Both the position numbers and the translations under genes were made by a program. From an uncultured delta proteobacterium (GTDB taxonomy: Bacteria > Myxococcota_A > Polyangia > Polyangiales > B10-G4): a stretch of 64,000 nt of DNA. Where the stretch lies: contig CAVSGI010000011.1 in the NCBI GenBank assembly GCA_963727445.1, forward strand, positions 1 through 64,000, written 5' to 3'. The notes below the pieces were generated by a model. The model saw only the letters and a list, made by a program, of their open reading frames with translations. It was not told the DNA's origin and did no database searches. Below, piece after piece: positions 5,139-37,056 of the stretch; positions within the stretch are counted from its first letter, which is position 1; each line of letters starts with the position of its first letter.

Positions 5139-5257
5139 GGGGACTGGCGGGGCGCGGGAGTGGATAGATGGGATGTAAGCGGCTGGCCGCCACTGACGTG
5201 GTAGCCGTAGCCCCACAACCGTAAACGCGGTCAAGAGCCGCAGAGTGGAGGCCAGCC

Positions 5258-6288
5258 GTGGAACACATTGGCATCGATGTTCACAAGAAGACAAGTCAGG
5301 TCTGCATCCAGACGAGCGAGGGAGAGCTGCGGGAGCGGCGCGTGGCGACGACGCGCGATGCGCTGGCGAAGGTGTTCGCGGACCGCGCCCGGGCGAAGAT
5401 CCTGATGGAGGCGTCGACGGACAGCGAGTGGGTGGCGCGGTGGCTCGAGGAGCTGGGCCATGAGGTGATCGTGGCGGACCCGAACTTCGCGCCGATGTAT
5501 GCCACGCGAAGCCGCAAGGTGAAGACGGACCGGCGCGATGCGCGGGCGCTCTGCGACGCCTGCCGGCTCGGCGCGTACCGCCCAGCGCACCGCGCCTCGG
5601 ACGCGGCCCGTCATCGGCGAGCGCAGGTCGCGGTGCGTGATGCGCTGGTGCGCACGCGAACGAAGTACATCTCGCTCACCCGAGCGCTTGTGCGGCGCGA
5701 GGGCTTGTCGCCACGAAGCGGCGGAGCGGCGACCTTCGCGGCGCGCATCGAGGAGCTGTCACTGCCCGCCCACCTGGCGCTCGAGGTCGCGCCGCTGCTC
5801 ACGATGCTCGAGCAGCTCACCATGCAGATCCGCGACGCCGACAAGCGCCTCGCCGAGCTCGCCAAGGGCGACGAGACCGTCGAACGCCTGTGCACCGTGC
5901 CGAGCATCGGGCCGGTGACGGCGGTGACCTTCGTCGCCGTGGTCGACCAGATCGGTCGCTTCCACAACGCCTCACAAGTGCGCGCCTACCTCGGCCTGGT
6001 GCCCCGCGAGCTGAGCTCTGGCGAAAAACGGATGCGGGGCCACATCACGAAGACCGGCAATCGCCGTCTCAGGTCGCTGCTCGTCGAAGCGGCCTGGGGA
6101 TCTTTCGTCACAAACGACCGGAGACGAAGGCGCTACGCGACTGGACGGAGCGCATCGCCGCACGCCGCGGCAAGCGGATCGCGGCGGTGGCGCTGGCGCG
6201 CAAGCTCGCGGGGATCTTGTACGCGATGTGGCGAGACGGGACGCGCTTCGAGGCGACAGCGAGCCGTGAGGAGGCTGCTGCAGCCTGA
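5258..6288 (+). CDS. IS110 DEDD transposase/recombinase, frameshifted near 6096
   Basis: GIDVHK, EAST and KTDRRDA motifs; G4 run where copy 2 has G5; C-terminus continues in the 5890-6288 frame. Confidence 0.9.
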
Positions 6289-6299
6289 CCCGCAACCGA

Positions 6300-6530
6300 C
6301 GATGACCCGCTCTTCGTGAAGGGAACCGATTATGGTGGTCGAGCGCGATGTGCTGGCTGGCTGCTGTCGAACGCCGATGGATAGATGGCGCCGACCACCA
6401 CCGAATCCCACCCTGCGCCGCGGCCTCGATGCCGCCCCAGTCGAGCGCGAACAGAAGGCTGAACAACCCGTCACGTATGAGCGAAACGACGAACCCGAGC
6501 CGAAGCGAAGGAGACGTGCAACGACGTAGA
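6300..6530 (+). ncRNA. Putative bridge/seek RNA of IS110 copy 1 (boundaries approximate)
   Basis: Guide-like segments match the target flanks (6348-6358, 6378-6384) and the donor junction (6405-6410, 6451-6457); enclosing stem TGGTGGTCG/CGACCACCA shows a compensatory change in copy 2. Confidence 0.75.
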
Positions 6531-6898
6531 ACGAAAATCAGACAAACCTGTTGACCGGGGTGGCCGCTTCACAGAAGCCATCACATAGTCTCTCAGGATG
6601 CGCGAGCTGCACTGTCACGTCGGATTCTTCGGCGCGAGGGTATCGACATCAACGAGGCCGCAAACGGGATTTTTCTTCCCCGCTCGCGCCGGGTTGCTCA
6701 GCCGCCGACTACAACTCACTCAGTAATTCACACCAACCGGTACTACACTGAGCTTGGAAGACGACTTCAGGATGCGGCACCAGGCACGGTCCGGGAGGAG
6801 TTGCGGGCGATCGCCACTGAGATACCGGCCGGCGAGTTCCCGTACTAGAACTTCAACTTCGCAGACCTGCCTTTCCTTGCACAAGGACTACTTGGAGA

Positions 6899-7447: not shown

Positions 7448-7944
7448 GTAGGCAAGTTCTCCCGAACCAGGACGGAGCACTAGACTGTCAAAGGCCAAGC
7501 TCGAGCAGGGTTCGTAACTCAGGCCCGAAGAAACGGCGCCGACTATGCGGAGATCGCAAATCCGACTGGACATCAAAGCTCCGGTTTCCAGCCACCGTGT
7601 AAGCGGACCGGCTCCCCGGACGCCCGAAATTCCGCAGAAGTAGGAGTGTTCCGTCGCGCGCGCCAGATGACATAGCTCTGGATGGAGGGGTGGCTGCGCG
7701 CTCGACGGAACACAGTTTGAGCCGAGCCCAGTCGACGGGAGGTCCTATGGGGAAGTCACGCTTCGGAGCTGACGGTGAGCGTCCAAGCGGCGTGGAGAAT
7801 GCGGCGGCCGACGGCGCCGAGGAGGCACATGCGGAGGCATGAATGTCGCCCGACAGAGGACGCGGCGCACGCACGGGTGGTCGAGGACGGACCGGTACGT
7901 CTCCGGGTCGTGCCGGCCGAGCGCATGTGTTCGTGGCGAATGCG

Positions 7945-9120
7945 TCATGGAGGCGCCCTGACGTTGGGAAGCGGCGCAGCACAGAGCGCCATCGTCATCT
8001 CGTGGCAGCGCGGGCATCGTCTGAGGTCGATGCCGGTCAGTCGGCGGACGAGCGCGACGACAGCGTCTTCGTCCTCGGCCTCGTCGGCGTCGATGACGGG
8101 TGGCGGGGTCTCGACAGGCCTGCTCTTCGACAGCAGCGCCCGGGCCTGGGCGAGACGTCCGTGCACGTGGCGTGAAGAGAGCAAGCCGTAGTGGCGGATG
8201 CGGACGAATCCGTCGGGCAGGACGTGGCGAAGGAGGCGGCGCAAGAAGAGCGGCGCGGGCAGCGTGACCTTCTTCTGATGCCGGGTGCGAAAGGTGACGC
8301 CAGCATCGTCGACGGCGAGGATGCGGCGATTCGACAGGCCGATGCGATGCGTGTAGCGACCGAGGTAGGCGAAGACGGCGTCGGCGTCGCCGAAGGGGCG
8401 CTTGGCGTAGACGAGCCAGTCTCTGTCGTAGAGCGCGTCGAGATCGCCGGCATCGCGGAGCAGACCGCGCGCGTCGAGACGCCGGATGGCATCGAGGTAC
8501 TTACCGCGGAAGAGACGGCCGAGGACGCGCACCGGAAAGAGGAAGCCCTCCTGCGTCGCGCGCCATCGTCCATCGGCATCGAGTCCGCCGCCGGTGACCA
8601 CGCAGTGCAGATGCGGATGCCACGACAGGTCGCGGCTCCACGTGTGAAGCACGGCGGTGAGGCCGAGGTCGGCGCCGAGCCACCGGGGGTCGCGTCCGAG
8701 CTCGAGCAACGTGTCGGCCGCCACACGAAAGAGCGCATCGCACATCCGGCGGCGATTGTTGTACACGAGCGCGCGTAGCTCGGACGGCAGCGTGAAGACG
8801 ACGTGGAAGTGGTGGACGGGGAGCAGACGCGCCCGCCGCGCCTCGAGCCAGCGATGCTGAGCGAGCGCCTGACACTTGGGGCAGTGACGGTTGCGACACG
8901 AGTTGTACGACGGGCGCTCGTGGCCGCACCGCGTACACACGTCGAGGTGACCGCCGAGGGCGGCGGTCCGGCAGCGCATCCAGGCGGTCAGCACGCGTCG
9001 CTCGGGCGAGCCTCGTGGGTAGCGGGGGGCGATCTCGGCCGCGTGAGCCCGCGCGATCGCGCCCACTTCGAAACGAGGTCGCTCCGAAGACGCCGTGGCC
9101 GCCGAACAGGGCGGCGGCAC
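7945..9120 (-). CDS. IS91-family (Y2 HUH) transposase with N-terminal Zn-binding domain
   Basis: YNSCRNRHCPKC, HFHVVFT, HPHLHC (HUH), YLGRY and FVRIRHYGLL motifs. Confidence 0.93.
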   Translation of the reverse strand: MPPPCSAATASSERPRFEVGAIARAHAAEIAPRYPRGSPERRVLTAWMRCRTAALGGHLDVCTRCGHERPSYNSCRNRHCPKCQALAQHRWLEARRARLLPVHHFHVVFTLPSELRALVYNNRRRMCDALFRVAADTLLELGRDPRWLGADLGLTAVLHTWSRDLSWHPHLHCVVTGGGLDADGRWRATQEGFLFPVRVLGRLFRGKYLDAIRRLDARGLLRDAGDLDALYDRDWLVYAKRPFGDADAVFAYLGRYTHRIGLSNRRILAVDDAGVTFRTRHQKKVTLPAPLFLRRLLRHVLPDGFVRIRHYGLLSSRHVHGRLAQARALLSKSRPVETPPPVIDADEAEDEDAVVALVRRLTGIDLRRCPRCHEMTMALCAAPLPNVRAPP

Positions 9121-9126
9121 CGCGAC

Positions 9127-9989
9127 CTAGCCGAAGCGCTCGGCGGTCTCGGAGCCCAAGAGGTCGAGCGGGCTCGGCAACTGGCTGCGGCGGGCGTGTG
9201 TCAGGTGCACGTAGAGCACCGTCGATTCGATGCACGCGTGGCCGAGGATCAGCTGGACGCTGCGCAAATCGGCGCCAGCCTCGATGAGGTGCGTGGCGAA
9301 GCTATGACGCAGCGTGTGCGCCGTGACCGGCTTGTCGATGGCGGCCTGGGCGAGCGCCCGTCGCAGCGGAAGCGTGAACGCTGCCCTCGACAGACCTCCC
9401 CCTTTCGGCCGTGGCCCGGAAAGAGCCACTCACCTGCGGGTCGCACGCGCCGGTAGTAGTCGCGCAGCTGACGGAGCAGCCGCTTGGCGAGCGGCACCTG
9501 TCGCTGCTTTCCGCCTTTGGACGAGCGGACGTCGAGCACGTGCCGGTGGCTGTCGATGTCCGCCACTCGCAGTCGGCACGCTTCGGTGATGCGTAGCCCG
9601 GCCCCGTAACACAGCGTGGCGATCGTCTGATGGGTGACGGACTCGAACGAGGAGAGGAGCCGTTCGACCTCGGTGCCGCTGAGCACCAGCGGAAGCTTCG
9701 TCGGCACCGCCGCGAAGGGCAGCTGCATCACCCACTCGCTCTGCTTCAGCGTCGTGCCGTAGAAGAACCGCAGCGCCGCCGCGCACTGGTTTCGCGTCGA
9801 CGCCGACAGCCCCCGCTCCCGCGTCAACAGCAGCAGGTAGCGCTCCACCTCCTCGAGTCCCAGCTGCCGCGGGTCCTGCCCGAAGTGCTCCGCGAACTTG
9901 CGGACGTGGCGCAGGTACGCCGTGCGCGTCCCCGGACGAAACCCGCGCAACTCCATGTCCGCTTCCATCTTGATGACCAACTCGTCCAT
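9127..9989 (-). CDS. Tyrosine recombinase (IS91-associated, IntI/XerD-like), frameshift near 9400
   Basis: SAM-like N-terminus; [28 protein letters not shown] and Y motifs split over two frames at a G5 run. Confidence 0.9.
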
Positions 9990-10326
9990 CGCCTCGCTCC
10001 TTGCCTCGTCGCACCCGGTGTGGATGCGAGCGAACAGGATCGCGATGGCGAGGGAGGACCGAGCGCCGACCTTCAGAACCGCGGAGAAACCGCCCCGCAG
10101 GGGCTTGGTTGAAGGTATGATCTGTCGACTCCCTGCCCGGCCGGAGGGGAGCGGAGGCCGTTTGTGATGGCTATCAGCTATTCTTGGGCGACTACGATGA
10201 TGTAACCGCGGTAGATCCAGCAACATACCCGGGTGCGAACGGGACTTTCGCTATTTCTTGGGCAGATTCGACGCGGATATTTCCGCAGTTCGAGGTCGCC
10301 GCCGCCTACGTCAACGTCCCAAGTCC

Positions 10327-10821: not shown

Positions 10822-11033
10822 AGTGAGTGTCGGAGCCTTCCCCGCCGCGCAGAACGGCACTCACATCACCGGATAGATCACCGCGACGATCGAGCCCATG
10901 TCGCCACTACAAACCAAGCTCCGCGTTCGGAGATAGCGGATAGATGGGATGTAAGCGGCTGGCCGCCACTGACGTGGTAGCCGTAGCCCCACAACGTTGA
11001 TCGCGGTCAAGAGCCGCAGAGTGGAGGCCAGCC

Positions 11034-12065
11034 GTGGAGCACATTGGCATCGATGTTCACAAGAAGACAAGTCAGGTCTGCATCCAGACGAAAGAGGGAG
11101 AGCTGTGGGAGCGGCGCGTGGCGACGACGCGCGAAGCCCTGGCGAAGCTGTTCGCCAACCGCGCACGGGCGAAGATCGTGATGGAGGCGTCGACGGACAG
11201 CGAGTGGGTGGCTCGCTGGCTCGAGGAGCTGGGTCACGAGGTGATCGTGGCGGACCCGAACTTCGCGCCGATGTACGCCACGCGGAGCCGCAAAGTGAAG
11301 ACGGACCGGCGCGACGCGCGAGCGCTATGCGACGCCTGCCGGCTCGGCGCGTACCGCCCGGCGCACCGCGCCTCGGACGCGGCTCGGCATCGGCGAGCGC
11401 AGGTCGCGGTGCGTGACGCGCTGGTGCGCACGCGAACGAAGTACATCTCGCTCACCCGGGCACTTCTACGGCGCGAGGGGCTGTCGCCGCGAAGCGGCGG
11501 AGCGGCAACGTTTGCCGCGCGCATCGAGGAGCTGTCGCTGCCAGCGCACCTGTCGCTCGAGGTCGCCCCCCTGCTCGTGATGCTCGAGCAACTCACCGCG
11601 CAGATCCGCGACGCCGACAAGCGCCTCGCCGAGCTCGCCAAGGGCGACGAGGTGGTCGAGCGTCTGTGCACGGTGCCGAGCATCGGGCCCGTCACGGCGG
11701 TGACCTTCGTCGCGGTGGTCGACCAGATCGGCCGCTTCCACAACGCCTCGCAAGTGCGTGCCTATCTGGGCCTGGTGCCGCGCGAGCTGAGCTCGGGCGA
11801 AAAACGAATGAGAGGCCACATCACGAAGACGGGTAGTCGTCGCCTTCGGTCGCTGCTCGTCGAAGCGGCCTGGGGGATCTTGCGGCACAAACGACCGGAG
11901 ACGGCGCCGCTTCGCGAATGGACACTGCGCATCGCCGCGCGGCGCGGCAAACGAATCGCGGCGGTCGCGCTGGCGCGCAAGCTCGCGGGGATCTTGTACG
12001 CGATGTGGCGAGACGGGACGCGCTTCGAGGCGACCGTGAGTCGTGAGGAGGTGGCTGCGGCCTGA
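11034..12065 (+). CDS. IS110 transposase, intact (343 aa)
   Basis: DEDD RuvC-like motifs, GLVP..SSG and ARKLA motifs. Confidence 0.95.
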   Translation: MEHIGIDVHKKTSQVCIQTKEGELWERRVATTREALAKLFANRARAKIVMEASTDSEWVARWLEELGHEVIVADPNFAPMYATRSRKVKTDRRDARALCDACRLGAYRPAHRASDAARHRRAQVAVRDALVRTRTKYISLTRALLRREGLSPRSGGAATFAARIEELSLPAHLSLEVAPLLVMLEQLTAQIRDADKRLAELAKGDEVVERLCTVPSIGPVTAVTFVAVVDQIGRFHNASQVRAYLGLVPRELSSGEKRMRGHITKTGSRRLRSLLVEAAWGILRHKRPETAPLREWTLRIAARRGKRIAAVALARKLAGILYAMWRDGTRFEATVSREEVAAA

Positions 12066-12082
12066 CCTGCAAACGTGACGAA

Positions 12083-12315
12083 CGATGACCCGCTCTTCGT
12101 GAAGGGAACCGATTATGGTGATCGAGCGCGACATGCTTACTGGCTGCTGTCGAACGCCGACGGATAGATGGCGCCGATCACCACCGAATCCCACCCTGCG
12201 CCGCGGCCTCGAAGCCGCCCCAGTCGAGCGCGAACAGAAGGCTGAACAACCCGTCACGTACGAGCGAAACGACGAACCCGAGCCGAAGCGAAGGAGACGA
12301 GCCACGACGACGTAG
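12083..12315 (+). ncRNA. Putative bridge/seek RNA of IS110 copy 2 (boundaries approximate)
   Basis: Target guides CATGCTTACT (12132-41) and CGGATAG (12161-67); donor guides ATCCCA and ACAGAAG identical to copy 1. Confidence 0.75.
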
Positions 12316-13942
12316 AGCGCAAAATCAAAAACAACGCAGTTGACCGGGGTGGCCGCTTCACAGAAGTAACCACGAACGGCCTCGCGCCGCCGCAGGCGGT
12401 GTGACGAGTCGACAGATCGTACCTTGAACCAAGCCGCCTGCGGCGGCGGCTCCCTCGCGCCTGCCGCGTGTTATGCTGGACCCGCTGCCCATTCGGGGGT
12501 GCGGAATGCTCAGCCGACTCCTCTCAGGGCAGCTGGGAGGCAGCATTGGACAAGGGGTCCTACGAGCTCCGTGGCCTTCGTCCCCGCGGTCGAGAATAGC
12601 GTCCCGGTTCCTTGCACGTCCCACGCAGGTGGCGCGTGTATTCGTGCGCCCGCTGTGAGTCGGCGCTCGTCGAATTCCCCATAGCGCCTCTCCACCCGAA
12701 GCGGTCCCGGTAGGCTCGGCTCAAACTGTGTTCCGTCGAGCGCGCAGCCACCGCTGCCTGCAGTAGCGTCCGTCAAGGTGGTGTAAGAGGCCACCGCGTC
12801 ATCGTGGGCTAAGCGGTCATCGGCAGCGTCGGCTCCTCCGTGTCGTCGTTCGGCTTCCGGACCAAGTCCTCGAGAGAGCCGATGGTGAGGTAGCGCCTCA
12901 TGATGGCCCACTCGTCGTGCTGCTCCGCCAAGACGGCGCCGAGCAGACGAATGACAGAGTCGCGGTTGGGGAAGATGCCGACGACGTCGCTGCGGCGCCT
13001 GAGTTCCTTGTTCAGTCGTTCCTGCGGGTTGTTGCTCCACACGCGACGCCAGTGCGCCTCCGGGAAGCTCGTGAAGGCGAGCAGCTCCGGCGCGGCCTCG
13101 TCGAGGAGCTTCGCCGCGTCGCCGAAGCGCTCCTCGAGCTTGGAGACGACCTCGCTGTGCTGCGCCCAGACGGCGTCGGCGTTCGGCTGCTGGAAGATGC
13201 TGCGCACGAGCGTGGCGACGAGGCCCTGCGCGCTCTTCGGCACGCGCGTCAGCAGGTTCCGCATGAAGTGCGTCTTGCATCGCTGCCACGACGCGCCCGG
13301 GAGCACGGCGCCGACGGCGGCCTTCAGCCCCTCGTGCGCGTCGCTCACGACGAGCTTGACGCCGCTGAGACCTCGCGCGACGAGACCGCGAAGAAACGTC
13401 GTCCACGACGCTCCGTCCTCGACCGTGACGACGTCGACACCGAGCACCTCGCGGTGACCGTCGGCGTTCACGCCCGTCGCGACGACGACCGCGACATTGA
13501 CGATGCGGCCGAGCTCGCGGCTCTTGACGCACATCGCGTCGAGCCAGACGTACGGGTACGCCTCCGCATCCAGCGGCCGATTGCGGAACGCATCGACCTG
13601 CTCGTCAAGGCTCTTCGCGAGCTCGCTCACCTGCGACTTGCTGATGCCTTCGATGCCTGTTAACGAGCGACGTATCTGAGGTCGCTGCCCTCGATTTCGC
13701 GCACGAAGCGTGAGGGGAACGGGTTCGGCGAGGGGCCGATGGTCATCGCCGATTTCTTCGGTCGGCGGGGTCGTCCGGGCTCTGATGCGCGCCGGAGGCG
13801 GAGCATCGGTGCGGAGCCGGTCGCGTTAAATAGATGACGGGGGTGGGTTTGGCCGCCACTCCCCCGTCGTGCTCCGACGCAGCTGAATACGAAGCGGAGC
13901 ACTACACGAGTCGTCTACTTCGACGTCGACGTCAAGTCTTGG

Positions 13943-16733: not shown

Positions 16734-17490
16734 CAGCGCCGCGCCACGCACCATGATGGCCTTCGCGTCTCGGCAGCGCATCGCCGGACGCGAGGGCCAT
16801 CGCCTGCGTCAGCTGCTCGTCATGCCGCGAGGGGCATCAAGCAGGCTGCGTGAAAATCCCTCGGATAGCGTGCGCGGTAACAATGCCGAGCTGCTTCACG
16901 ACGGCGTCGACCTTCCGCGTCGATACGCCCTGCACCCACGTCTCGGCGATGACCGCCACGAGCGCCTTCTCGCTCCGCTTGCGCGGCTCGAGCAGCCAGT
17001 CCGGAAAGTAGCTCCCCTTGCGCAGCTTCGGAATCGCCAGGTCGATGCTGCCGACCCGCGTGTCCCAACGCCGTCGTCGAAATCCGTTGCGCTGATTCGT
17101 CCGCTCCTCGCTCCGCACGCCCCACGGCGCGTTGCACAGCCCCTCGGCCTCCATCTCCATCAGCGCCTCGGCCATGAACTGCACCATCGACCGGAGCTGG
17201 TCGCCGTCCGCTGCTTCGAGGTGCTTGCGCATCAGCGCCACTGCATCCATCGTCTTCTTCGTCTCGGTCATCGTCGTCCTCCTCGTTGGTTCGCAACTCG
17301 AAGATGACGCGATGGCCGAGACGTTAATAGGTCTCAGGCTTGATCACTCGTGCCTGCTCTTACACCACGCGATTGGACGTTACCCTGCCTGCACAGCTAC
17401 GTCATCTGGCGCGCGCGACGGAACACTCCTACTTCTCGGAAACTCGGGCGTCCGGTGAAGGGGTTGGCTTCCGTGGAGGCTGGAAACCGG

Positions 17491-17898
17491 AGCTACAAGA
17501 ACCCGAAGATCCTCGACGCCGAGGCGCTTCGCGCCGCGAGCGTCGCCCTCGCCGACGTCGACATCCGGAACGAGAGCTTCGAGGCGCTCCTCGAGAACGC
17601 CCGCCCCGGCGACTTCGTCTACTTCGATCCGCCTTACGCGCCTGTGAGCGAGACCGCGAACTTCACGAGCTATGCCCAGGACGGCTTCGGCCCGGACATG
17701 CAGGTGAAGCTGCGCGACGTCTACCGCGTGCTCGACCGGCGCGGCTGCAAGCTGATGCTCTCCAACAGTGACGTCCCCTTCATCCGCGACCTGTACCGCG
17801 GCTTCGAGATCGACACCGTGGCGGCACCCCGCGCCGTGAACTGCGACGCGACCCGCCGCGGCAAGGTCAGCGAGGTCGTCGTCCGCAACTACCAGTGA
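17491..17898 (+). pseudogene. DNA adenine methylase (Dam/D12 class), C-terminal part only
   Basis: YKNPKI, DFVYFDPPY, FTSY and LSNS motifs; 5' part replaced by the element B end. Confidence 0.85.
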
Positions 17899-20940: not shown

Positions 20941-21029
20941 GCCCAAGTCGCCGAGCCCTAAAGTGCGTACCTTGTACGGTTGTGTGGACCCGGTCGTACG
21001 TGTGACCCTTCTACTCGAGGGTGGTAGGC

Positions 21030-24000
21030 ATGCGAGTCGGCGTTTTCCTGGGGTTGTCGGTCCTCTTTGTCACGGCGTGTAGTGGCGGCGACGAGCCACC
21101 CGACGGCGCCATGGACAGCGCCACCGACAGCACGATCGGCGATGGGACCGTGGACGGCGACGGCGCGCCCATGGACGTTCCGCTTTCGGACGTCGGGCCC
21201 ACGTGCACCACCGACGTCGATTGCGACGACGGAGATGCCTGCAACGGAACCGAGACCTGCGACACCGCGACGGGTATGTGTGCCGGCGGCACCGCACCCG
21301 CGGATGGAACGACCTGTGACGCGGATGGGATGCCCTCCACCCCGGACATCTGCCTCGCTGGAACCTGCGTCGCCTCCACCTGCGGCGACGGCTATACGGA
21401 CACGGCTACGGACGAAGAGTGTGACGACGCCAACACGACCATCGGTGACGGTTGCGACGCCTGCCGGGTCGAGTGCCTGGCCGACACCGACTGCGACGAC
21501 ATGGACCCGTGCAACGGCGTCGAGGCCTGCGACCCTCTGACGCGCGCGTGCACGACGGGTTCCTCGGCTCGCGACGGCACCATCTGCGACGCGGACAGCG
21601 ATCCCACGACCCGCGACATCTGCCGAGGTGGGACCTGCGACGCCTCGATCTGCGGTGATGGGTACGTGGATACGGTCGGGGGGGAGTACTGCGACGACGG
21701 CAACGTCATCGATGGCGATGGTTGCGATTCGACGTGCACGATCGACTGCAGCACGGACTCCGACTGTGAGGACGGAAACGCCTGCAACGGCACCGAAACC
21801 TGCGACGCGACCACCATGGTCTGCGTGGTCGGGACGGTCAGCCCAGACGGGACGGTCTGCGACGCGGATGGCGTGCGTTCCACCCGCGACATCTGCCTGG
21901 GCGGATTGTGCGGCCTCTCGATTTGTGGCGACGGTTACGTCGACCGACGCGAGGACTGCGACGACGGCAACACCGTCGACGGGGACGGATGCGACAACGA
22001 TTGCAGCTATTCCTGCCGCCGCGACCGTGACTGCGACGATGGAAGCCCGTGCAGCGACGACACGTGCGACACCGGCGCACACCGCTGCAACTTCACACCG
22101 GCGGGCGCAGGAACGGTGTGCCGCGCCTCGACCGGCGGGTGCGATCCCGCGGAGACATGTGACGGCGCGTCCACCGCCTGCCCCGCCGACGCATTCGAAG
22201 CGGCGGGGGCCGTGTGCCGAGACTCTACCGGCGGGTGCGATCCCGCCGAGACCTGCGACGGTACGACCGCGGCTTGTCCCGCCGACGCGCTCGAGGCCGC
22301 TGGCTTCGTGTGTCGCGCGGCGGTGAGCCTCTGCGATATCGAGGAAACCTGCGACGGCAGCAGCGCCGCCTGCCCGACCGACGCCCTCGCGTCGGCCGGC
22401 ACCGTGTGCCGGGCATCGGCCGGAGCCTGCGACGTCGACGAAGTCTGCGATGGCGCATCCAACACGTGCCCGGGCGACTTGCTGGCCGCTGCCGGCTCGG
22501 TCTGCCGGGCCGCCGTCGGCACCTGCGACATCGACGAAACCTGCGACGGGTCGTCGGCCGCCTGTCCGACGGACGCGGTGGCCAGCGCGGGCACCGCCTG
22601 CCGCGCGTCCGCTGGCGCATGCGACGTCGGCGAAACGTGCGACGGCACCAGCGGCAGCTGCCCGAGCGATGGCTTCGCCGCCGCGGGCACGGTCTGCCGA
22701 TCCTCCATGGACACCTGTGACGTCGAGGAGACGTGCACAGGCTCCAGCGCGACCTGTCCCGCGGACGCTTTCGCCGGGCTGACCGTGATCTGCCGCGCGT
22801 CGACCGCCCCCTGCGATGCGACCGAGACCTGCGACGGATCGACCGCGGCGTGCCCCCCCGACGGCTACGAGCCGACGGGCACGGTCTGTCGAAGCGCCGC
22901 CGATGCGTGCGACGCCGACGAGATCTGCGATGGCTTCAGCTACGCCTGCCCGGCTGACGCCTTCGCGCCGGTGGGCACCACCTGCCCCGGAGGCACCTGC
23001 GACGGGCTGGGAATGTGCTCCGCCGGCTGTACGCCCGGGGCGTCGTGCAGCACGGGCAATCCCTGCGAGCTCGGGACGATCGACTGCAGCAGCGGCTCAC
23101 CCGTGTGTGTGTCCGCCGGGCCCGCTCCGTCGACGACGGTCTGCCGCCCGGCGACCGCGCCCTGCGACATCGAGGAGCGCTGCTCGGGCACCAGCACCTC
23201 CTGCCCCGGTGACCGCTTCCTCACCGGAACCGTCTGCCGGCCGGCGTCCGGCGCCTGCGACGTCCCCGAGACGTGCACCGGAGGCAGCGGATCGTGTCCG
23301 CCAGACGGATTCGCGGCATCCGGAGTCGTCTGCAGGACCGCCGCCGGACCATGCGACGTCGACGAAACCTGTACCGGCGGAAGCAGCGCGTGCCCACCGG
23401 ACTCCTTCAGCTCGGCGGGCACGGTCTGCCGAGCGTCGGCGGGCGTCTGTGACGTTGCGGAGACCTGCGACGGCGCCGCCGCGCTGTGTCCGACGGATTC
23501 CTTCGCCGCCTCCGGCACCACCTGCCGTGGATCCACGGGCGCTTGCGATCTGGAAGAGCGTTGCGATGGCGCCACCGCCGATTGCCCCGCCGACGCCCTC
23601 ACCGCCGCGGGGACCGTGTGCCGCAGCGCCACCGGCGCCTGCGACGTCGCGGAGACCTGCGACGGAGCGAGCACCGCGTGTCCAGCGGACGGTTGGGCCG
23701 CCGCCGGTACGACGTGTCGTGCGGTCGCAGGGCCTTGCGACGTCGCCGAGCAGTGCACCGGCGGGTCGGCGGCCTGCCCCCCCGATGCCTTCGACACCTC
23801 CGGCTCGATCTGTCGGGCGTCCGGCGGCGCATGCGACGTCCCAGAGGCCTGCAACGGAACCGGCGTGATGTGCCCGCTGGACGTCTTCGTGTCGGCCGGC
23901 ACCGAATGTCGCGCGTCGGCTGGCGCCTGCGACGTGGCCGAGGCGTGTAGCGGCACGTCCGCCACGTGTCCCGCCGACGGGGCGCGCTCCTTCGGAACAC

Positions 24001-26544
24001 TCTGTCGGGCGGCCTCTGGTCTGTGCGACCTCGATGAGCGGTGCGATGGGTCCAGCCCGACCTGTCCGGCCGACGCGCTCGCCGCGTCCGGAACCGTCTG
24101 TCGCTCGGCGGCTGGCGCCTGTGACATGGCCGAGACCTGCAGCGGCTCCTCCGCGTCTTGTCCGGCCGACGGTCTTCAGGCCTCCGGCTTCGTGTGTCGC
24201 TCCGCGACGGGAGAGTGCGACCTCGCCGAGACCTGCGATGGGGCGAGCACGTCGTGTCCCATGGATGGGTATGCCCCGAGCGGCCAGATGTGTAGCGGCG
24301 GTACGTGCGACGGCCTCGGCATGTGCGTGTCGGGATGCACCGGAGGCGCCTCGTGCAGCACGGGCAACCCGTGCGAGGTCGGCACGATTGACTGCAGCAC
24401 CGGCAGCCCGGTCTGCGTGTCGGCCGGTCCGGCGAGCGCGGGGGTCGTCTGTCGGGCGGCGACCGGGCCCTGCGACGTTCCCGAGACCTGCACGGGCTCG
24501 AGCACCACGTGTCCTTCCAACGCCTTCGAGCCTTCGAGCACCGTCTGCCGCGGAGCCGCGGGGGCGTGCGATGTCGCGGAGACCTGCACCGGCTCGAGCG
24601 CCAGCTGCCCCGCCGACAACCTGGCCACGAGCGGCACCGTCTGCCGAGCCGCCGCGGGGACCTGCGACGTGGCCGAGACCTGCTCCGGGTCGAGCCCGAG
24701 CTGTCCCGCCGACTCGTTCGTCAGCAGCGGCACCAGCTGCCGGGCGTCGGCGGGGCCGTGCGACGTGGCGGAGTCCTGCACGGGCTCGAGCGCGAGCTGC
24801 CCCGCCGACGGATTCGCCAGCTCTAGCACCGTGTGTCGGACTGCGAGCGGCGCATGCGACGTGGCCGAGACCTGCTCCGGCGTGAGTGCCGCGTGTCCGG
24901 CGAACGGCTACGCGAGCTCCGGCACGATTCTGTCGAAGCGCGAGCGGTGCGTGCGACGTGGCCGAGACCTGCTCCGGGTCCAGCGCCTCGTGCCCGGCGA
25001 ACGGCTACGCAAGCGCCGGAACGACCTGCCGCGCCGCGGTGGGGCCGTGTGACGCGACCGAAACCTGCTCAGGGTCCAGCGCATCGTGTCCCGCCGACGG
25101 CTACGCGAGCTCCGGAACGACCTGTCGGGCGGCGAGCGGCGGGTGTGACGTCGCGGAGAGCTGCACGGGCTCGAGCGCATCCTGCCCGGCCGACGGCTTC
25201 CAGAGCGGCGGGACGACGTGTCGCTCCTCCGCCGGCCCCTGTGACGTCACGGAGAGCTGCACGGGCTCGAGCGCGTCCTGCCCGCCCGACGGATTCCAGA
25301 GCTCCTCGACGGTCTGCCGTGCGTCGGCCGCACTGTGTGACGCCGCCGAGACGTGCACCGGATCGGGTGCGCTCTGTCCGGCGGACGCACCAGCTTCGGC
25401 CGGCACGGTCTGCCGCGCCATGAGCGGGATGTGCGACGTCGCCGAGATGTGCGACGGGACCTCGATGTCCTGTCCGGCGGACGCGAGCGCGCCCGATGGC
25501 ACCTCGTGCGACATCGATGGCAACCCCGCCACGCCGGACGTGTGCCTCGCGGGTGTGTGCACGGGCTCTTCGTGCGGCGACGGAACCGTGGACATGGCGA
25601 GCGGCGAGCAGTGCGACGACATGAACACCACGCGCCTCGACGGCTGCGACCCGTTCTGTCTCATCGAGCAGAGCGTACGCTTCGACAGCATCGCCGTTCA
25701 GGGGCCGAGCTTCGGGTGTACCGACATCGACAGCGACGGATCCATCGACAACCAGATCGGCACCGCGTTCTCGTCGACGGCGCGAAGCCAGCTCAACGGG
25801 GACGTCGCGACGTCCGTCGACAACGGCGACTTCAACTTGCTGATGCCACTGCTGGGCCTCGACGACCTGCTCGGGCAGAACGACCCGGCTCTGCGTCTGG
25901 GTATCGTGAACTCCAACGACGCGGTGAGCCCCTTCGACGGAACCAGGGGCGAGGATTTCCTGGCGTGGGCGAGCGCCGTCGACGGGACGGGCCTGCCCAC
26001 ATCGATCGTCGATCCGGCCATGGTGAGCGGGGGCATGCTCACCTCGTCGGGCCGGATCGCCAACATGGACGTGCTCCTCTACGGCGATTGGGTGTCGTGG
26101 ACCTTCGAGCGTGCGCGGATCAGCGGCACGGTGGTTCCCGACACCGGGATGATGCGCGTCGACTCCATCTCCAACGGGATGCTCTGCGGAGCGATCCCCG
26201 CGGCTTCGCTCGATCGCAGCGTGATGCCGGACACCCTCGCGTCGGTCTGCCCGGCCTACGCTGGCGACTCGTTCCTTGACGCGCTCGTGGGTGGCTGTCG
26301 CTTCAGCTTCATCACGCTGATCACCGGCAGTCAGCCTGACATCGATATCGAAGGCGACGGGATCTACAGCCCGGCCCTCGAAGACACCAACGGCGACGGA
26401 CGCATCGACCGCTGCCGCGATGGGGCCAGCGGCACCATCATCACCGGTGACAACTGCGCCCAGGACCCCCGCTTCGACGACGCCTACTCGGTCGCTTTCA
26501 GCTACACGGCCATCCGCGCCGACCTGGTCGGCGTCGCGCCGTAG
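21030..26544 (+). CDS. Giant Cys-rich lipoprotein with DUF4215-type and ~32 disintegrin-like repeats; one frameshift near 24929
   Basis: Lipobox VTAC; CGDG..CDDGN..GDGC repeats; 32-aa units VCRAAAGPCDVAETCTGSSASCPADGF continue across ORFs 21021-25052 and 24886-26544. Confidence 0.88.
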
Positions 26545-31229: not shown

Positions 31230-31587
31230 TTGGTCCATTATCGCGACGTGGAGCTCGTTGGGGGACGGTTCGAGCTGCGAGGCGAAGCCGGCGCCGGAGC
31301 CATGGCAAAGGTCTTTCGCGCTCACGACCTCCACACCGACGAGACGGTCGCCGTCAAGATCCTCCACCCGGGCTCGGACACCAACTACCGCCGTTTCGAG
31401 CGGGAAGCGAGCGTGCTCGCCACGCTTCGCACCCCGGGCGTCGTGCGTTACGTGGCCCACGGGCGCGCGCCCGATGGCCAGCCGTTCCTCGCGATGGAGT
31501 GGCTCGATGGGTTCGACCTCGAAGAGTGGCTGCGGGATCGCACGTGCACCGCGGATGAGGTGCTGGTGCTCGGCTGCGCGTTGGCGA
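31230..31587 (+). pseudogene. Ser/Thr kinase N-lobe, truncated by a repeat unit
   Basis: GAGAMAKV, VAVKIL, RFEREA and LAMEWL motifs, then abrupt switch to repeat sequence. Confidence 0.85.
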
Positions 31588-31682
31588 GCTCCGGTTTCCA
31601 GGCCTCGACGGAAGCCAACCCCCTCACCGGACGTCCGAGTTTCGCAGTAGGTATGATCTGTCGACTGGCCCGCGCGGGGCCA
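31588..31682 (-). repeat. Empty repeat unit C (both end regions of element A fused at AGG)
   Basis: GCTCCGGTTTCCAG..TCACCGGACGTCCGAGTTTCGCAGT joined to AGGTATGATCTGTCGACT (18/18 identical to 10113-10130). Confidence 0.85.
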
Positions 31683-32783: not shown

Positions 32784-32921
32784 GCTCCGGTTTCCAGCCT
32801 CCACGGAAGCCAACCCCCCCTCACCGAACGTCCGAGTCTCGCAGTAGGAGCGATTATGTAGCCCCTGGCTCACGGGAGGATGGCGGAAGGCCGTTCATGC
32901 TCGTTCATGCTGACTATCAAC
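32784..32921 (-). repeat. Complete minimal repeat unit D with a 10-bp internal duplication
   Basis: GCTCCGGTTTCCAG...GGC CGTTCATGCT CGTTCATGCT GACTATCAAC. Confidence 0.85.
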
Positions 32922-34315: not shown

Positions 34316-34584
34316 GGGATGAGTATGGGGCGCGTCAAGCGTGGTCGCAACGAAGCGTGGGATCCCGTCAATCCACTTTCCCCGGGCAAGTGGGTGGTCT
34401 CGACGCGACTCGGCGCTACTATCCTCTCGGCTCTGCGGCACTACACACTGGCATGGAGCTTCGTGGGGCTGGCGGCGCTAAGCGCGTGCCGCGACGGTGA
34501 GGAGTCGACGGACGGCGGCGTCACCGACGGGGCGACCGACGCCGGGATCGCGTCGCCGCCCGACATCCGCTGGCCGGGGCGATC

Positions 34585-34719
34585 GGGGACGGTTCGAACT
34601 TCCGTCACGCGGCGCTGCCCCGGACGCGCGCGTTACGGACGGCGGTCGGGGATGGTTCGGACTTTCCGTCACGCGGCGCTGGACCGAACGCGCGCGTTGC
34701 GGAAGTTCGGACCGTCCCC
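34585..34719. repeat. REP/MITE-like hairpins (one partial and one complete 72-bp unit)
   Basis: GGGGAYGGTTCGRACTT(T)CCGTCAC arms paired with GTTGCGGAAGTTCGGACCGTCCCC. Confidence 0.8.
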
Positions 34720-34730
34720 AGACGCCGTCT

Positions 34731-35236
34731 GGCGGTACGCGCCCAGCCGGCAGGCGTCGCACAGCGCCCGCGGATCGCGCCGGTCCGTCTTCACTTTGCG
34801 GCTTCGCGTGCCGTACATCGGCGCGAAGTTGACTCGACCCTTCGGGTCGTCGACAGGTCTGTACCCGCGCGGCTCCGTGGACTTGCGTCCACTCCGCTTC
34901 GCACGGCTACAGCCATGTTCGGGTCCGCCACGATCACCTCGTGACCCAGCTCCTCGAGCCAGCGAGCCACCCACTCGCTGTCCGTCGACGCCTCCATCAC
35001 GATCTTCGCCCGTGCGCGGTTGGCGAACAGCTTCGCCAGGGCTTCGCGCGTCGTCGCCACGCGCCGCTCCCACAGCTCACCCTCTTTCGTCTGGATGCAG
35101 ACCTGACTTGTCTTCTTGTGAACATCGATGCCAATGTGCTCCACGGCTGGCCTCCACTCTGCGGCTCTTGACCGCGATCAACGTTGTGGGGCTACGGCTA
35201 CCACGTCAGTGGCGGCCAGCCGCTTACATCCCATCT
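34731..35236 (-). mobile_element. IS110 copy 3, 5' remnant with an 89-bp insertion
   Basis: Near-identical to 10942-11360; left end GTTGATAG|ATGGGATG; truncated next to the REP-like hairpin. Confidence 0.9.
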
Positions 35237-35330
35237 ATCAACCTAGTCGACCGCATGGAGTGCGTTCGCATTCTTAGCTTGCGCCGGTACTCCTGCGTGA
35301 CGGCTATCCTCGGCGCAGCTCACTGGATGG

Positions 35331-36643: not shown

Positions 36644-36901
36644 GAACGACCCTCCCCGCGGGGGCGTATATCACATACATCCTAGGGAGCGACACAGTCG
36701 TCCCCCGGCGCAGCGAACCCCCACGGACACTGCGGGGCCCTGCGCAGCGCGTGTACTCGTCGCTCCAGCTCTGCCCGGGCCAACAGCACTGACGGCGGTC
36801 TCCTCCGTGACGACCTTCCCGTCGGGACAGTTGGCGCCGGTCGTCGTCGTCCCTTGCGTGGTGGACGCGTCGACGGTCGCCGTGCCGGCGGGGACGAAGA
36901 A

Positions 36902-36973
36902 GGGGACGGTCCGAATTTCCGTAACGCCAGGCCCCGGAAAACACCCCCAGTTACGGAAGTTCGAACCGTCCCC
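36902..36973. repeat. 72-bp REP/MITE-like hairpin
   Basis: 24-bp arms GGGGACGGTCCGAATTTCCGTAAC / GTTACGGAAGTTCGAACCGTCCCC. Confidence 0.85.
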
Positions 36974-37056
36974 GTTCGCCCTCCGCGTCGCGATGGGATC
37001 CAGGACCCGGGTGGGACGGAGTTCGCCGCGCGCGGGCGAGGCGGATACCATAGGCC

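Follow-up and report, generated by a model that had tools for sequence, protein, structure and literature searches.

The 89-bp insert in the third IS110 copy of the window, the 64,000-nucleotide stretch of DNA analysed here, belongs to a family of non-autonomous, gene-less two-hairpin elements of 77-103 bp. We are highly confident that this is a mobile family defined by its two-hairpin geometry. The insert itself is confirmed as real. The window reads GTT, 86 nucleotides, and GTT again, and all eight other IS110 copies of the same genome (G000; two copies in the window, six on C9, C12, C21, and C24) carry a single GTT at the homologous point. Thus, the 89 bp in copy 3 are extra. The original prediction of an exact 89-bp insert with GTT on both sides is therefore borne out, and the analysis also supports its description as a mobile element that lacks genes and offers a clean pair of filled and empty sites. 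The comparison with public runs covered the assembled contigs of four out of 24 runs. Contigs of the runs X2 and X3 join 34827 to 34917 and skip the 89 nucleotides, which represents the empty joint. As evidence against an assembly artefact, the left junction is also spanned by one weak contig of run X5 (depth 2.5), whose IS110 haplotype is a different, copy-2-like one. Copy 3 is a 5' relic of about 510 bp, and its frame is shifted by the insert after the codons for ADPN. Compared to the intact copy 2 it has one difference in 320 nucleotides to the right of the insert and seven in 100 nucleotides to the left. The effect in the window is small because the element sits in an IS110 copy that is already truncated.

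Table 1. Positions of the element, its structural parts, and the IS110 copies in the window
Feature	Position	Strand	Description
Target triplet GTT	34828..34830	+	Within the IS110 gene (Asn codon, - strand); insertion 3' of the triplet
Element proper, 89 bp, gene-less	34831..34919	+	Model match of 103.6 bits and boundary analysis
Left arm	34831..34851	+	Conserved start GAC pairs with 34849-34851 and closes the short hairpin 34835-34849
Internal GTCGAC	34849..34854	+	Can pair with the first bases and with the last bases of the element
Long imperfect hairpin	34853..34919	+	Reaches the last base of the element; stem varies with compensation
Most conserved apex	34870..34901	+	GC-TCC-GTGGAC loop GTCCAC-TCC-GC; 3x3 internal loop and 2-nt bulge
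IS110 copy 3	34731..35239	-	Left end and first ~100 transposase codons only; NF033542 match 34791-35144
IS110 copy 2	10936..12366	+	Intact, empty allele; site near 11259-11261
IS110 copy 1	5160..6577	+	Empty allele; site near 5483-5485

Both hairpins that had been noticed in the insert, GACCC-TTC-GGGTC with six base pairs and GTGGAC-TTGC-GTCCAC at 34877-34892, exist. The second is the mere tip of a 67-nt imperfect hairpin, whose stem is in register with a C.C mismatch at 34864/34907 and has a 2-nt bulge near the apex on the 3' arm. The linear element folds with -20.7 kcal/mol on the + strand (3/200 shuffles as good) and with -27.5 kcal/mol on the - strand (0/200), and the bottom strand of the linear form is the more stable one in 59 of the 62 copies, which are not independent of each other. 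The circularised form, whose folding the original prediction had suggested as a check, is a rod that none of 300 shuffles equals on either strand. In all four elements folded as circles 73-81% of the bases are paired. The internal GTCGAC may splint the junction of the circle and so hold both ends in register; in the alignment its pairs connect column 4 to 39, 41 to 106, and 42 to 105. Close members of the family begin with the conserved NACT, which is followed by a short variable hairpin, an internal motif of the GT-N-N-AC type, and a long hairpin that extends to the last base and has a conserved apex. The short hairpin of the left arm differs in sequence and length among the copies, and its inner hairpin is missing in one 77-bp copy (L302). 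Two-sided change is found in ten of the 17 pairs of the long hairpin. In the seed alignment, 15 of the 29 pairs show such compensatory change and none of 500 shuffles reaches the observed support, which is somewhat overstated given that the copies are related and that this alignment also served to derive the structure. The paired cells amount to 94% in this alignment versus 28-43% in slid controls. The columns of the apex are invariant in alignment A1, and the apex is likely a putative site for recognition by a protein. Terminal inverted repeats are absent from the element sequence.

Judged by its gene content, G000 is probably a myxobacterium. Searching G000 with the 89-mer by blastn reveals four relatives at 79-82%. 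These are all located within (GTTCCC)n-like tracts and adjoin pairs of short genes, whose products look by eye like four-helix-bundle proteins. Blastn matches were obtained in 36 of 301 genomes of the order. A covariance model built from 17 copies, which also captures more distant variants, e.g. hairpins fused to duplicated tRNA 3' ends, matches 43/151 genomes of the order, 10/151 genomes of the phylum, and 2/113 genomes of another class, of which G367 alone has 16 matches. It has six matches in G000 and finds three full copies in a single 53-kb prophage contig. Hairpin modules related to the element and fused to duplicated tRNA 3' ends are present in family f9 (L218, L219, L225, L228, L295, L296), often as tandem copies behind an inverted T-arm piece. 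High-copy variants with at least 28 matches each are found inside longer intergenic REP-like repeats of G067, G135, and G045 (L237-L254, L261-L274). Plasmid and phage collections gave no match in blastn searches. A first viral pattern had no matches, three later ones match one prophage contig, and a microvirus-like contig matched by a viral pattern was judged to be a chance hit on reading the sequence. A short gapped pattern scan of genome contigs resulted in 120 loci that are due to chance, as the model matches none of the 100 given to it. The all-genome pattern scan was too loose and says nothing about other phyla. The seven loci of the metagenome scan are not independent data because several are identical to loci of G001 and G081. 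Rfam recognises nothing but tRNA and YrlA in ten loci. In the literature (main texts, mostly open-access) we found no description of the two-hairpin family, which is thus apparently undescribed so far, and supplementary REP tables could hold related repeats.

For analysing the junctions, 28 events were picked by hand from 65 model matches (62 plus three from the prophage), leaving out copies that are paralogous, in tandem, or poorly bounded as well as a single copy within an Rhs-type gene. The flanks of these events are unrelated to one another. The left triplet is GTT in 23 events, CTT in two, and GTG in three, with a T in the middle position in all 28. The right triplet is GTT in 17 events. 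The triplets on both sides are equal in 16 events including the window copy and unequal in 12 (and in 30 of the 62 raw matches), which excludes a 3-bp target duplication. A genome-wide search had been expected to reveal copies that are all bounded by GTT or GYT. Relatives do exist, but only the mentioned 17 events end with GTT and two targets are CTT, so that a common boundary on both sides does not hold. In the 11 T-loop events the TT of the target is kept at 20 of 22 bases on the left versus 11 of 22 on the right (Fisher p = 0.007). The following C-R-A is kept at 33 of 33 bases, a number that is partly circular since the same bases were used to recognise the loops. The three insertions in the prophage are separate events, and all of them start after GTT and end with AAC. 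These copies have an internal CTT opposite the AAC end, at the place where the window copy has GAC (34852-34854). Hence, the last triplet is part of the element and changes with the bases that it pairs with. By this comparison the last three bases are shown to be set, as far as sequences can tell, by pairing with the internal motif and not by the target. A C follows the target in 21/28 events (background: 49% of the GTT in G000 are followed by C), and the tract-borne target in G367 is CTT. The third base is G on the left in three of the 28 events and departs from T on the right in seven. Given the three events with G as third left base, and since old copies are perhaps enriched for junction mutations, a one-base shift or a short overlap at the junction is possible. 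Taken together, the family appears to insert 3' of (G/C)TT, usually before C, without target duplication or terminal inverted repeats. Insertion at GTT|C, which gives the element as listed in Table 1, is most likely for the window copy, and the left boundary could be one base earlier (34830-34918).

In total 17 of the 28 events are located in tRNA or 5S genes, 16 of them in tRNA genes or their relics and one in a 5S gene. The tRNA events comprise 11 in the T-loop in sense orientation, three in the D-loop, one in the anticodon loop, and one at the 3' end, the latter five all antisense. The presence of both orientations relative to the tRNA genes points to an event at the DNA level. The majority of the tRNA events belong to long tRNA arrays, in which genes for HNH, RtcB, or Ro60 are present as well. 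The tRNA genes of mobile tRNA arrays are thus repeatedly broken by such inserts, and element-interrupted tRNA genes in these loci were missed or mis-called by ARAGORN. A second pair from a single genome is provided by the tRNA-Leu(CAA) gene, which is filled on C255 of G005 and empty on C328, and orthologous Trp, Tyr, and Ser tRNA genes are empty in other arrays. Other events are in simple-repeat tracts and mobile-element genes. In G059 (L223:746-1345, L311) two different transposase genes of the IS91 type have a 90-bp member directly ahead of their HUH motif, and in the one translated this member is in frame and adds 30 codons without a stop. One IS91-type transposase gene of G053 is cut by the element. 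An event in G038 had been labelled by eye as insertion into an IS91 transposase gene, which tblastn did not confirm, and is not counted as an IS91 insertion. The model match upstream of the IS91 gene in G009 is a duplicate of a tRNA-Leu 3' end and not an IS end.

Some of the arrays and tracts have features of their own. The prophage (G513; L410:8499-14732) is a tailed one with a 26-gene tRNA array including HNH and Ro60 genes; three tRNA genes of this array are broken by the element, and a gene for an Arr-type rifampin ADP-ribosyltransferase is present. G000 also has a tRNA array (C9:32100-35300), which is degenerate, contains the same HNH gene at 61% identity, is split by a protein-coding gene, and has no model match. 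Near-identical units between (GGGAAC)n tracts are located on C27 and C6 of G000 (L173:6100-8420 and L174:6800-8740). Besides a 37-bp tandem array and long hairpins, each contains a convergent pair of short genes, which are four-helix-bundle-like by eye, and each looks like a mobile unit in its own right.

The original prediction had also noted a beta-like motif at 34849-34865 and placed the insert in the same family as the beta repeats of the window. The motif is present but its likeness to beta is weak, as 35 of 1000 shuffles are as good against the best beta copy and 486 of 1000 against the beta-alpha unit. The four bases after GTCGAC vary across the family. Membership in the beta family is not supported by the family model, which matches none of the beta or alpha repeats of the window. 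Beta and alpha look like a system separate from the two-hairpin element. These repeats are found at 7577-7730, 10112-10162, 12365-12425, 17383-17494, 31587-31665, and 32784-32840 of the window and on C12 of G000 (C12:22426-31126), and alpha has about 40 occurrences in G000. In the window they flank a unit of an IS91 transposase and a tyrosine recombinase (7945-9990), and they are fused to a gene-less beta-alpha unit of about 125 bp between genes on C12, C9, C21, and C24. Beta and alpha may represent either a landing pad or ends of the IS91 type. The gene for the tyrosine recombinase (9249-10226, - strand), located upstream of that for the IS91 transposase, is split over two frames near 9405; its copy on C22 is in one frame, and the split could be an assembly error. 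Intact IS110 copies abut the left end of beta (window 12365; G000 C9:929210, C9:933698, C12:32203, C21:2470, C21:6986, and C24:1411), which suggests that beta is their target. No beta match adjoins copy 1 of the window, which is apparently frameshifted near 6100 as judged by eye, and this could be an assembly error as well. At the place where copy 3 is truncated, GGGGAC-type repeats are present (34570-34730 and 36900-36981) that resemble the terminal repeats beside two Y1-like genes of G000 (L195, L196). Similar clusters are also found on C12, C20, and C21. In addition, the window contains a very long gene of Cys-rich repeats with 96-bp units (21021-26544), which is broken across frames near 24900-25050.

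How might such an element move? By analogy to known systems, a nuclease/ligase of the HUH type, either Y1/RAYT-like or Y2/IS91-like, could act on it in trans. This is our tentative first choice, held with slightly less than even confidence. The reason is the layout shared by IS91 and IS200/IS605 elements, which have a target motif 5' of one end, no target duplication, and palindromes near both ends (IS91: available part of PMC13181058; IS200/IS605: available part of PMC8266576). One strand of the element would be released as a rod-shaped circle of about 90 nt, in which the internal GT-N-N-AC motif would bring the two ends into line. The conserved apex would be recognised by an enzyme whose gene is located elsewhere, and this enzyme would join the circle directly 3' of GTT to DNA that is single-stranded or looped. 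Joining into exposed or looped DNA would explain why T-loops of tRNA genes, antisense tRNA-gene loops, a 5S gene, simple-repeat tracts, and mobile-element genes are hit. Several points count against the HUH enzyme. The more stable linear strand is the bottom one, yet by the geometry it is the top strand that has the target motif on its 5' side. One cut 3' of GTT leaves the three events unexplained in which the third left base is not T. Furthermore, no mobilising gene was found among the neighbours of the copies, the model has no convincing match beside the Y1, GIY-YIG, RT, and IS91 genes inspected, and no circle was observed.

Among the neighbouring ORFs, of which 146 out of 167 were scanned, there is no Y1, integrase, or GIY-YIG gene, and no TnpA gene beside any copy. 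The family model has no convincing match at 26 loci, which are mostly Y1 loci, with two weak matches in the palindrome of L336, and none at 16 further Y1, RT, and IS91 loci. Y1 was found in 21/23 f16 genomes, where the model has matches in none of the 23, and was not found in G008, which holds three model matches. Y2 is present in 6/23 f9 genomes versus model matches in 17/23. G000 itself encodes four Y1-like proteins and two types of Y2 transposase. None of the six model matches of G000 is located at any of its seven Y2 matches, and L001 and L175 contain none. The 53 ORFs of the prophage and the tyrosine recombinases were checked and none tracks the element. The order-wide tallies of Y1, Y2, and the array HNH include the unpublished genome G122 as one of the 151 genomes, and no other claim rests on it. 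Altogether, no IntI, Y1, Y2, GIY-YIG, HNH, or RT gene is tied to the element, and these absences exclude none of the candidates because genomes are incomplete and relics outlast their enzymes.

Alternatively, the element could be an integron-like ORF-less cassette, a circle with an attC-like hairpin that is recombined into secondary GTT sites by IntI or by a related tyrosine recombinase, for example that encoded upstream of the IS91 transposase gene of the window. The attC layout consists of an R box, an unpaired spacer, an L box, and a terminal structure (available part of PMC11641012), and a similar arrangement can be drawn on the circular fold of the element, with a duplex box at the junction followed by a loosely paired spacer, another box, and the terminal structure, but the spacer is symmetric and partly paired. 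The more stable bottom strand and the predominance of GTT targets, which resemble the attG target GWT from -1 to +2 that integron integrases cut between G and WT (available part of 10.1101/2022.09.11.507474), would fit, and junction mutations that prevent excision might be over-represented among old copies. The crossover would however be located after GT or GTT and not after G, the internal triplet is GAC or CTT and not AAC, two of the targets are CTT, and a copy with a gene between the ends was not seen. None of the 13 IntI matches in G000, which is 86% complete, is over the cut-off (best 128 versus a cut-off of 265 bits), the same is true for all five relatives tested (best 181.5, a C-terminal fragment), and a crude scan of G000 did not reveal clustered canonical attC sites or an array. 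The GTT on both sides had originally been taken as the integron crossover triplet. A crossover G|TT is at odds with the one-sided retention of the TT in T-loops, the AAC ends of the prophage copies, and the IntI result for G000, and we regard the cassette as unlikely.

Similarly improbable is homing-like copying, in which a free-standing nickase (GIY-YIG or the HNH of the arrays) would nick T-loop-like DNA after GTT and the hairpin module would be copied by repair. This would suit the preference for tRNA and 5S genes, the frequent C after the target, and the HNH gene in the element-bearing arrays that were scanned. On the other hand, most GIY-YIG matches in 32 element-bearing genomes are UvrC-sized with short stand-alone frames in only a few, and the model has no match in ten GIY-YIG loci. 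Of the 151 genomes, 129 have the array HNH, yet the query used did not find it in the three f8 genomes, all of which hold the element. An RNA route is doubtful to a still greater degree. Here, a tiny RNA rod would be reverse-transcribed in an msDNA-like way, or would be spliced from tRNA precursors and religated by RtcB so that the interrupted tRNAs still work. The self-splinted junction, as seen in the circular folds, would place exon ends side by side, RtcB and Ro60 genes are present in tRNA arrays, and msDNA-like repeats have reportedly been observed in a myxobacterium (Nannocystis). This is opposed by copies that are antisense in D-loops and the anticodon loop or located in protein genes and repeat tracts, by the lack of model matches at all four RT loci, by RT not being found in G008 and G038, and by the Rfam result.

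It seems very unlikely that the element is a minimal donor which an IS110-type enzyme or a serine recombinase recombines at a core of the two base pairs TT. Mismatched cores would explain the varying third base on either side, and TT is common to both sides where the target is CTT (L300, L306, L307). The three prophage copies end with AAC and have no core match, yet their junctions are clean, and the compensated stems point to a single-stranded substrate. The targets have three to four bases in common, which is too few for an RNA-guided IS110 site. An ordinary DDE-type MITE, for which only the events with equal triplets including the window copy would speak, is refuted by the unequal triplets and also by the missing terminal inverted repeats, and since homologues exist in many genomes and the left junction is present in the independent run X5, hardly anything is left for it or for an assembly artefact.

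In comparison to known systems, the element shares with DDE MITEs (available part of PMC10969869) the small size, the absence of genes, and presumed mobilisation in trans, and differs in having neither terminal inverted repeats nor a target duplication. No match to a retron msd was seen at the four RT loci. Small bulged hairpins are also characteristic for REP/REPIN sequences with their TnpA-REP (RAYT) and for IS200/IS605 derivatives, which are thought to be moved in trans as single strands by an HUH enzyme (available parts of PMC8266576, PMC6006769, and PMC3733652). REPs have a GTAG foot conserved 5' of the hairpin and are cleaved at C|T, whereas the GTAG on the bottom strand of the element is not conserved and the junctions are at GTT. 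Furthermore, the element is present here in low copy number, inside genes at GTT, with two unlike hairpins, and was not found beside Y1 genes. With IS200/IS605 derivatives it has in common a hairpin at each end, the target 5' of the left end, and the missing duplication; a consistent guide tetranucleotide of the IS200/IS605 type, which would be located 5' of each hairpin and pair with the cleavage site, was not evident by eye. Integron cassettes including ORF-less ones and attG (available parts of PMC11641012, 10.1101/2022.09.11.507474, and PMC8876359) are alike in the folded single-strand site, the more stable bottom strand, the GTT-like targets, and the lack of genes. In contrast to attC, the crossover is after GT or GTT instead of G|TT, there is no AAC in the pairing box and no evident offset extrahelical base near the box, neither IntI nor an array accompanies the element in G000, and the body of the element is itself a hairpin. 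attC sites have two to three extrahelical bases; the element has the C.C mismatch in its stem and the 2-nt bulge close to the apex. IS91 (available part of PMC13181058) also has no target duplication, two unlike ends with palindromes, and a short motif beside one end, and GTTC is the commonest target context of the two-hairpin element. However, IS91 has an intact tetranucleotide beside oriIS and a related one at terIS, whereas the element splits the GTT|C of the empty site and has no fixed tetranucleotide at its far end (GTT, GGT, AAC). It also has no sequence in common with the tested IS91 loci of G000 and encodes no transposase. It is conceivable, if rather on the unlikely side, that the elements constitute a new class of self-splinting, rod-shaped single-stranded DNA circles of about 80-100 nt that insert after GTT in T-loop-like motifs, maybe as a branch of a cross-phylum superfamily of two-hairpin, tRNA-invading elements. 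If the mechanism is true, they would be among the smallest bacterial mobile elements, and the 89-nt substrate together with the target GTT|C would give a search for an enzyme that joins single-stranded DNA a defined starting point. Judged by analogy, the element would work like other non-autonomous single-strand elements but departs from attC, IS91, REPs, and MITEs in their defining features, and under the proposed mechanism its junction rule would fit none of integrons, IS91, IS200/IS605, REPs, and MITEs.
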